Under the pieces are notes generated by a model. It was given only the letters and a program-made list of their open reading frames with translations. It was not told the DNA's origin and ran no database searches. A stretch of 64,000 nt of DNA from Callorhinchus milii. Its lineage: Eukaryota. The DNA lies in assembly GCF_018977255.1 (NCBI RefSeq), contig NW_024704757.1:6882001-6946000 (forward strand). Direction: 5' to 3'. The translations under genes and the position numbers were made by a program. Position 1 is the first letter of the stretch. Each line of letters starts with the position of its first letter. Of this stretch, positions 34,201-37,200 are shown piece after piece.

Positions 34201-37200
34201 TTATTCGTAGATGTCTCTCTTGTCTGCGATGTAAGTGACGATCTCCTGCGGTGACATTAGCTTCTCTGCCTCAGCATCGGGAATCTCGAACCCTGCCACA
34301 GGAACAGAAGAGACCGTCACAGCAGCTGTGATCGCTCATAGGCCCTGGTGCCCCCCACCACACCATTCCCCTTCTCTGGCAGGATCCATGGAAGCTGGAT
34401 TGAGAGAGAAACATGTGACAATGGGAAGGCATTGAGGTTGGGGCCTCAATGTACCAGCTACCAGCCCATAAATTAGAGCAACGCTGCCCAAGTTACTAAC
34501 AAGCACAAGTGCACAACACAGGTCATTCAGTCAGTCAACTCTGCACCAGAGACTGTGGGCTCATGCTTCTGTCCCAAGTAGCAATTAGTCACATGATCAG
34601 CCTATCAGAATACCCCTGGGGTTAAACCCGTTCCCACAGAGATCCCAAAACATCTGCCTCCAGATCAGGATTCACTTTGTTTCTAATCGATCTCATTCTG
34701 GACAGCTCACTGCACCTGTCCAACACATAATAATAATAATCCTTGCATTTGATACAGCGCTTTATCACGCCATTGAGACGTCTCAAAACATTTCGCAGGA
34801 TGTATTGTAAATTGGGAGTGACTGTGTGTTTGAGTTGTTGAAGGTTGACAGACTGTCTGGGGCCAGGTGTGAGCCCCAGCAGGTAAGGCAGCTTCAGGGC
34901 ACAAGCTCTCAGTAACACTGTGTACTCGCTGCCTAGACACAAGCTGACTTACCAAACTCATCTTCCATGGCCATGATGATCTCCACTTGATCCAAACTGT
35001 CCAGCCCCAAATCTTTCATGAAATGAGATTCAACTGAGAGCTAAAAATACAAACAGCATAAAGACAGAGTTTCAGGAGAGAAAATCGCTTAATTACCCAG
35101 ATTTTAACTTGTTTCTTTCTTCCTTTTGAGTTCATCCCANNNNNNNNNNNNNNNNNNNNNNNNNGCAGGAGGAGGAGCCGCTGAGGTTGTGGCAGACCCT
35201 CACCGTGGCCGTGAGCTCTTTCCGCAGCTTTTCTGATTGAGAATTCCCCAAAGTGGGAGACAGCGGCTTGTCCAGGAGCAGCACCGCAGGTACAGCCACA
35301 CACACACTGCCTGGGAACACACAGCCACTGTGTCACTGTGTCACTGCCCCTCAGCCCCCGGTCACTGCCCCGCCCCCGCCCCCTACCCCAGCCCCGCCCC
35401 CGCCCCCAGCCCCGCCCCCAGCCCCGCCCCCAGTCCCCAGCCCCGCCTCCAGCCCGCCCCCCCCGCCCCAGAGCCCCGCCCCCGCCCCGCCCTCAGCCCC
35501 GGTCACGCCCCCCAGCCCCGCCCCCAGCCCCCCGCCCCACCCCGCCCCAGCCCCAGCCCCCAGACCCCCACCCCCCACCCCAGCCCCTGCTCCCAGCCCC
35601 GCCCCATACATCAGTCCCGCCCTCCGCTCCGCCCCCTACACCAGACCCTGTCCTCGGCCACACCCCTAAGCGGCCCCGCCCTCACCTCGCAGCACCGCGG
35701 GCTGATCCTCCACCACCGGCCCTGGCCCCGGGCCTCCCGGTGTCGCCGTGACGCCGGCGCTCGGCCTCTCTGGTGTCTCGGTCTCCATGGTGACGGTGGC
35801 TGTGGCCCTGTGTCCGGCTGCTGACCGGGGCTCCGGCCCTGTGACACCCACACCCGCCCCCGAGGTACCGGTCGCTGTCCCTGGTGTCCGGGGCACTGTT
35901 TGCCACGTTACAGCCTTTGGCTTCGACATTCCGGTCTCTGTCCACGTCTTTCCGGTCTCTGTTCGGGAAGTCCCGGTCTCTGTCTCCGCCGTTCCAGTTC
36001 CTGTCCATATCGGTCGCGTCTCTGTTGGTGACGGTCTGCGCTCTGTCCCTGACATTCCCGTCTCCGTCTCCGACGTTCCCATCTCTGTCCACAACGTTCC
36101 CATCTCTGTCCCTGATTTTCCAGTCTCTGTCTCTGTGATTCCGGTGTCCGTCTGCGACGTTACACTCTCTGTCTCCGACATACTGACCGCCGTCCACCGT
36201 GTCCCGGTGTCTGTCCGTGAGGGTCGGGTCTCTGTCCCTGACATTCCGGTCTCTGTCTCCGGTGTCTCTGTCCCTGACATTCCGGTCTCTGTCTCCGGTG
36301 TCTCTGTCCCTGACATTCCGGTCTCTGTCTCCGGTGTCTCTGTCCCTGACATTCCGGTCTCTGTCTCCGGTGTCTCTGTCCCTGACATTCCGGTCTCTGT
36401 CTCCGGTGTCTCTGTCCCTGACGTTCCTGTCCGTGGTCTTGATTTTCGGGTTCCTGTCCGCAATGTTCTGGTCACCGTTCGGGAAGTCCCGGTCTCTGTC
36501 TCCAATGTTCCCTTCTCTTTTCCCGACGTTCCCGTCTCTGTTCCAGTCAGTGTCCACACGGTTCCGGCCTCCGTCCACCGTGTCGCGGTCTCACGCCGTG
36601 AAGCTCTGGTCTCTGTCCCTGACATTCCGGTCTCTGTGGCCAACGTCGCAGTGTCTGTCCGCAAAGGTCCGCTCTCTGACTGCGAGATTCCGCTCTCTGT
36701 TCCCGGTGTTCCGGTCTCTGTTTGTAAGGTACTGCTCTCTGTCCCTGACATTCCGTCTCTGTTCGGGAAGTCCCGGTCTCTGTCTCCGCCGTTCCAGTTC
36801 TCTGTCCAACAAAAGGCAAGTGATCTGCTCACAGGCTCTGCGCCCCATGACAATAAGCAATTGCAACTCTCTCCCCACTTCCCCGCCCGAGGGGAGCTGA
36901 CAGCACCGTGATCCCCATCACAATGCAGTGATTGCCCCCCCCCCCCCAGAGCTGCAGAAAAGCAAAACGCATATATAACAAGTGTTTACCGGTTGTGTCA
37001 ATAACTAACACATTTTATTAAACAAAAAGTTGTCGCTCTACCTTGTCAGGATTGACTTTGTCGTACAGTTTGAGTACGTAGAGGACTCGTTCCTGAATAC
37101 TTTCCAACGTGAGGGGCGGCATATCCGAATACTGGCGACAGGTTTGTACAATTGGCCCGTAGCTCTGGGACACGGGAGGGAAACACAACACTTACACACA

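Follow-up and report, generated by a model that had tools for sequence, protein, structure and literature searches.

Mucin and SEA-domain exons of a Vap-like gene inside NDUFAB1 intron 2 of Callorhinchus milii: a probable misplaced assembly block

According to the accessible part of one study (PMC11968557), the gene si:ch211-14k19.8 belongs to a blood-vasculature gene set. Wider protein searches recover a vertebrate family (31 matches in one search and 218 at E<=0.001 in another), the shark members of which carry the names mucin-like or 'vap' (XP_067859852.1; XP_078414605.1, the latter being denoted 'vap'). These proteins are characterized by a conserved succession of features: in 24 of the 30 homologues, the low-complexity region ends with a VEDQP-type motif that is followed by a segment resembling exon B (described below), the V.PF..GF motif and GSVV, and this order is also found in the proteins of sharks, paddlefish and coelacanth. 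A CUB-like domain follows the signal peptide in sharks and many bony fish, and the bird and bowfin homologues start without it. The whole mucin exon is omitted from two shark homologue models (P0003 and P0035), with the CUB-like part joined directly to the SEA domain, which suggests a mucin-less splice form in sharks.

Errors at assembly gaps are the other described phenomenon to which the locus analysed here is to be compared. Gap fills that overshoot without closing the gap have been traced to scaffolding errors, as reported in the available portions of PMC3504050 and PMC9635638. The public assemblies of Callorhinchus milii contain gaps, and one of them was gap-filled, according to the available text and supplement of PMC8302630.

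We analysed a window of 64,000 nt of Callorhinchus milii DNA (NW_024704757.1, 6,882,001-6,946,000; the gene coordinates given here are those of the minus strand) that includes a gene of the known Vap/si:ch211-14k19.8 membrane mucin family. A search with the transmembrane exon of this gene returned two records from the same species, A0A4W3ISX6 (P0001) and XP_042197092.1, named 'si:ch211-14k19.8' (P0002). In common with the rest of the Vap family, the gene has a signal exon with a phase-1 donor, a Ser/Thr-rich exon with a VEDQP-type end, a SEA domain encoded in three exons together with the GSVV motif, an EGF domain, a transmembrane helix and a conserved tail, and the C-terminal 312 residues are about 59-60% identical to those of the shark Vap proteins. 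Unlike in the Vap orthologues, the mucin exon (A) and the first SEA exon (B) are out of order in the window sequence. The window yielded no counterpart of the CUB-like N-terminal part of the shark, paddlefish and coelacanth proteins, as a profile of 12 N-termini gave nothing better than iE 0.9; the respective exons may reside in a 404-N gap or may have been lost. The mucin repeat unit of exon A is the gene's own, given that none of the 7999 candidates matched in protein searches with this exon at 204-650 aa.

The first coding exon is a Vap-like signal-peptide exon of 43 nt and 14 codons (29675-29717). Compared with the N-terminus of the shark protein P0033, it has 11 of 15 residues identical and ranks first among 127,912 window positions (score 57, with the next at 34); 9 of 15 residues agree with another shark N-terminus. 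Because this exon is intact and matches the shark N-termini, it probably serves as the functional start of the coding sequence; a search of the window gave no further signal-like exon. Exon A (35686-36801; 1116 nt, flanked by AG and GT) encodes a mucin-like sequence rich in Thr, Glu, Gly and Ser, without a stop codon in the mucin frame. It contains a 36-bp array (36228-36431) and an internal duplicate (36800-36750 resembles 36000-35950), and its 3' end encodes the family motif VEDQP. A second frame of exon A (36590-35682) is open for 302 codons, is rich in Asp and Arg and continues through exon B. This second frame is used by the RefSeq model XP_042197092.1, and the homologues match the other one.

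Exon B (35204-35310; 107 nt, flanked by AG and GT) encodes the first part of the SEA domain. It is continued by SEA exon 2 (27722-27779; 58 nt here and 59 expected, hereafter the 27779 exon), SEA exon 3 with the GSVV motif (27024-27187, the 27187 exon), an EGF-like exon (26221-26383), the exon for the end of EGF and the transmembrane helix (25328-25519), cytoplasmic exon 1 (24878-25071) and the last two cytoplasmic coding exons (22007-22534, that is, about 22534-22382 and 22078-22007), onto which P0001 maps letter for letter. Exons A and B are well formed, lie on the same strand and join in phase 1, in agreement with the first-pass annotation of this sequence. Among the 2914 stop-to-stop peptides of the window, the best three matches to a profile of 42 homologue segments, most of them from birds, are exon B (iE 0.032), the 27187 exon (0.097) and the 27779 exon (0.1), each of these scores being weak alone and the next one being 4; exon B, the 27779 exon and the 27187 exon tile profile positions 16-45, 54-72 and 72-84, in this order. 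The Pfam SEA model passes its cut-off in 4 of 6 homologues and has 0 matches on the window's own pieces. The earlier assignment of exon B as the missing first part of the SEA domain is supported by the orthologues, by XP_042197092.1, in which A, B and the 27779 exon are joined, and by one RNA contig, the match of which ends at the donor of B. This contig (X8 contig 25, 668 nt) matches 35304-35202 and then runs for 565 letters off the stretch 29640-37330; the match extends to 35202 and so covers two letters beyond the donor, and the 27779 exon likewise begins with GT, so that this overrun is what a splice to it would produce. The exit at the donor thus fits a putative splice of exon B to the 27779 exon.

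NDUFAB1 (32976-38814) consists of exons 38814-38647 (coding part), 37164-37042, 35040-34953 and 34292-34183, and a non-coding last exon from 33337 to about 32976; exon 3 encodes a Pfam PP-binding domain (E=1.5e-5). Its intron 2 holds a block of ~1.8 kb with exons A and B, located 5' of their own signal-peptide exon. Along the DNA, A and B are followed by NDUFAB1 exons 3-5, the signal exon, the N gap and the 27779 exon, whereas the orthologues give a protein order of signal, mucin, SEA, EGF and transmembrane helix. The placement of A and B after NDUFAB1 exon 2, which extends to 37042, before exon 3 and before the signal exon was already recognized in the first-pass annotation and is confirmed in the sequence. 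So are the features that were held to bound the block and to mark its expected site: a C13 homopolymer (36935-36947; G13 on the minus strand), the likely left edge; a gap of 25 N (35140-35164), the right edge; and a gap of 404 N (28619-29022) between two tandem-repeat tracts, one TG-rich and the other a 22-bp array, where A, B and perhaps the CUB-like exons are expected. The GC content changes from 0.34 to 0.56 across the C13 run and from 0.67 to 0.33 across the 25-N gap, so that the two AT-rich stubs of NDUFAB1 intron 2, at 0.34 and 0.33, differ from the block, at 0.56-0.80. An acceptor-like site (36952-36947) is present immediately before the G13 run, and the next four bases are those that start NDUFAB1 exon 3; this likeness is probably due to chance, and the RNA depth there is 0.

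It is very probable that the block with exons A and B is a misplaced piece of the assembly and that the Vap-like gene is an ordinary, colinear one. Both edges of the block are of the assembly type, with 25 N on one side and a homopolymer of 13 bases on the other, each accompanied by a compositional break, and an N gap is present where the gene order of the orthologues puts A and B. Against misplacement, the nominal 404 N are fewer than the 1.8 kb of the block, and a real insertion would give an equal compositional break. We infer that, in the chromosome, the block would sit in the unsequenced part at 28.6-29.0 kb that separates the signal-peptide exon from the remaining SEA exons. The colinear gene would start with the signal exon and continue with, possibly, unassembled CUB-like exons, A, B, the 27779 exon and the remaining SEA, EGF, transmembrane and tail exons. 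It would lie downstream of a compact NDUFAB1, the intron 2 of which would consist of two AT-rich stubs and a short missing piece. Gap filling or scaffolding probably attached the block at the G13 run and would have left a token gap at the other end.

The 25-N gap may be a placeholder or the mark of an overfilled gap. The available portions of the gap-filling literature, including PMC3504050 and PMC9635638, contain no confirmation of 25 N as such a mark. With the overfilled gaps described in the same portions of these two papers, the locus shares sequence set against an unclosed gap, proximity to GC-rich repetitive DNA and consensus indels. If the misplacement holds, its significance is limited to annotation: the public models have incorrect N-termini, and this region of the genome should be re-assembled. 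The XP_042197092.1 model starts at 36848 and joins A, B and the 27779 exon across NDUFAB1, without a signal peptide; it reads A and B in the non-conserved frame, with a 57-nt skip over a stop codon, and such a structure is what a gene finder would make of such a sequence. A0A4W3ISX6 begins inside the SEA domain.

Four of the 12 runs that contain the block (X1, X8, X2 and X4) were compared over 29640-37330; none of the 12 is recorded as RNA. X1 and X8, which come from two studies, were taken to be RNA, do show spliced joints and consist of contigs rather than reads; X2 and X4 comprise ~890 million letters of a type that is not recorded, with no spliced joints among those listed, and are treated here as DNA. 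A dispersed repeat within 29640-37330 dominates the contig matches, with 15 joints listed versus 2903 more and 32 pieces versus 165,925 more. Among the 15 joints and 32 pieces listed, no DNA contig bridges or skips either edge of the block. The X4 contig that comes from NDUFAB1 exon 2 (X4 contig 21) stops at the homopolymer with 2 unaligned letters, and the X2 and X4 contigs from the exon 3 side both lose the match at 35136, with 89 and 105 letters beyond. These contig ends are compatible with misplacement and also with a join in which the G run is longer, and are weak evidence, and the arithmetic of bin depth in X2 and X4 is compatible with a join and with no join alike at either edge. Between the ends of the block and the flanks of the 404-N gap, the only common sequence is a 13-nt simple repeat (E=0.67), and a 26-base motif beside the left edge has 0 exact matches in metagenome contigs. 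The first-pass annotation favored a misplaced contig; this reading is supported indirectly by the edges, the break in GC content, the N gap, the orthologue order and the splicing of NDUFAB1 described next, and none of the DNA contigs listed locates exons A and B at 28.6-29.0 kb.

The RNA contigs bear on the possibility that the order is real and that the gene is interleaved and colinear, such that the NDUFAB1 promoter or an upstream first exon would lead into A and B and then into the 27779 exon, skipping NDUFAB1 exons 3-5 and the signal exon. This is how XP_042197092.1 was modelled, from its start at 36848, and, should an extra base near 36755 (see below) exist and the assembled start of A be correct, A would begin in phase 0 and match the phase-0 donor of NDUFAB1 exon 2. 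However, NDUFAB1 exon 2 is spliced straight to exon 3 in unbroken contigs of both studies, at depths of 1885 and 2011, and the joints 37042>35040, 34952>34291 and 34181>33335 are present in X1 and X8. Exon A is represented in the RNA contigs of both runs from 36750 downward, and the depth over A and B is low. The RNA depth in 36579-37092 is fully explained by the listed pieces, which leave 36751-37041 with zero, so RNA support is missing both for the RefSeq start at 36848 and for the acceptor at 36801, with the proviso that contigs drop rare forms and a minor transcript joining NDUFAB1 to the block could escape. The read-through from NDUFAB1, or use of another first exon, that had been considered earlier finds no support in these contigs, which skip the block by joining 37042 to 35040. 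Moreover, the RefSeq model depends on reading A and B in a frame that is not conserved and on the 57-nt skip over a stop codon, and the intact, conserved signal exon would go unused. The NDUFAB1 product carries a mitochondrial leader; the interleaved product would begin with it, and the window offers no other signal-like exon. We consider this arrangement very improbable.

A still less plausible alternative, likewise raised in the first-pass annotation and likewise without support, is a genuine DNA order combined with a non-colinear mRNA, with the signal exon trans-spliced or back-spliced onto A, followed by splicing of B to the SEA-EGF exons. Trans-spliced and back-spliced RNAs are mostly extra products of colinear genes. 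As in the transcripts covered by the available portions of PMC6283421 and PMC3875859, the protein would present its exons in another order than the DNA; unlike in these known cases, the only full-length Vap-like product would depend on non-colinear splicing. The signal exon and A are in phase as assembled, the exons are intact save for indels of one base, and RNA from A and B is present. This scheme, however, requires that the DNA order is correct at two suspect edges, and the signal-mucin-SEA order is kept in many vertebrates, according to gene models of the orthologues that are necessarily colinear. The RNA joint 29675>36801 is absent among the listed joints, with the signal exon bin itself at a contig depth of 0 in X1 and X8. 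If true, with the signal exon used, a vertebrate protein-coding gene would have an obligate need for non-colinear splicing, which would be a major surprise.

The assembled Vap-like gene shows three inferred one-base deficits, near 27775, 24890 and 36755. Exon B ends in phase 0, and the 27779 exon needs phase 1 for the conserved frame, a one-base mismatch; across the motif near 27775, all 42 of the 184 stored proteins that match it span 24 residues (72 nt), and the window has 71 nt. Near 24890, in a C run of cytoplasmic exon 1, P0001 continues with RHSL like the homologues, whereas the frame is shifted in the window and in P0002. Near 36755, 21+1 extra letters (gaps 22) are present in an X2 contig, the start of which falls at the very position predicted from the extra base, and 36750 is the point at which both RNA contigs switch from the internal duplicate. 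All four runs (X1, X8, X2 and X4) show indels at 33306-7 and 33937-9. In view of the three deficits together with these indels, the local sequence quality looks poor. The first-pass annotation had also noted that the signal exon and A are in phase: this stands for the sequence as assembled, in which the signal exon ends in phase 1, and depends on the reading near 36755 that other runs appear to contradict, since an extra base would put the start of exon A in phase 0, unless a second difference, at 36801, is also an error. The phase argument for splicing of the signal exon to A is accordingly a soft one, and in the shark orthologues CUB-like exons that are absent from the window come between the two.

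The same discrepancies could be read as pseudogene decay after a real short-range transposition that broke the gene in the animal or in the species. Three frame discrepancies and the absence from the window of the CUB-like exons of the shark orthologues are in line with such an event, which nevertheless appears highly unlikely. At one of the discrepant sites, P0001, a second record of the same species, keeps the conserved frame; around another, the X2 DNA contig has the one extra base (gaps 22 = 21 + 1); the exons are transcribed and apparently spliced; and the bird and bowfin homologues also begin without the CUB-like part. It is exceedingly improbable that the block is a duplicate the working copy of which is hidden in the gap, as could be suggested by the X4 depth of 11.2 at 36016 versus about 3-9 on most flanking contigs, given that the X2 depth in the block (7.3-8.0) equals that in the flanks (6.8-9.5), which, contig depth not being copy number, is a weak hint of one copy. 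The apparently poor local sequence speaks for the preferred reading, a misplaced block of a colinear gene.

Exon A and its surroundings show several additional features. A 21-nt in-frame insertion at 36693 is present in X8 and X2 and missing in X1 and the window; this difference is length variation of the mucin repeat. A longer, collapsed exon A, suggested by the 35950>36750 jump in both RNA contigs, was rejected: the X2 depth there equals that of the flanks, and the jump more probably reflects a graph shortcut across the duplicated segment within the exon. The 3' UTR of NDUFAB1 contains an intron of 845 nt (34182-33338), 18 nt past the stop codon, that is spliced in X1 and X8. GC-rich tandem arrays with units of 26-32 bp are located just upstream of the NDUFAB1 start (38883-39053) and in intron 1 (38429-38600). 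Elsewhere in the window, a 2.3-kb G/C-skewed low-complexity tract (50793-53140) that includes a third N gap (52702-52888) is another sign of hard-to-assemble DNA. Finally, a single-exon ORF of ~229 codons on the plus strand (61674-62363) encodes what we take to be a protein resembling Ras-family small GTPases.
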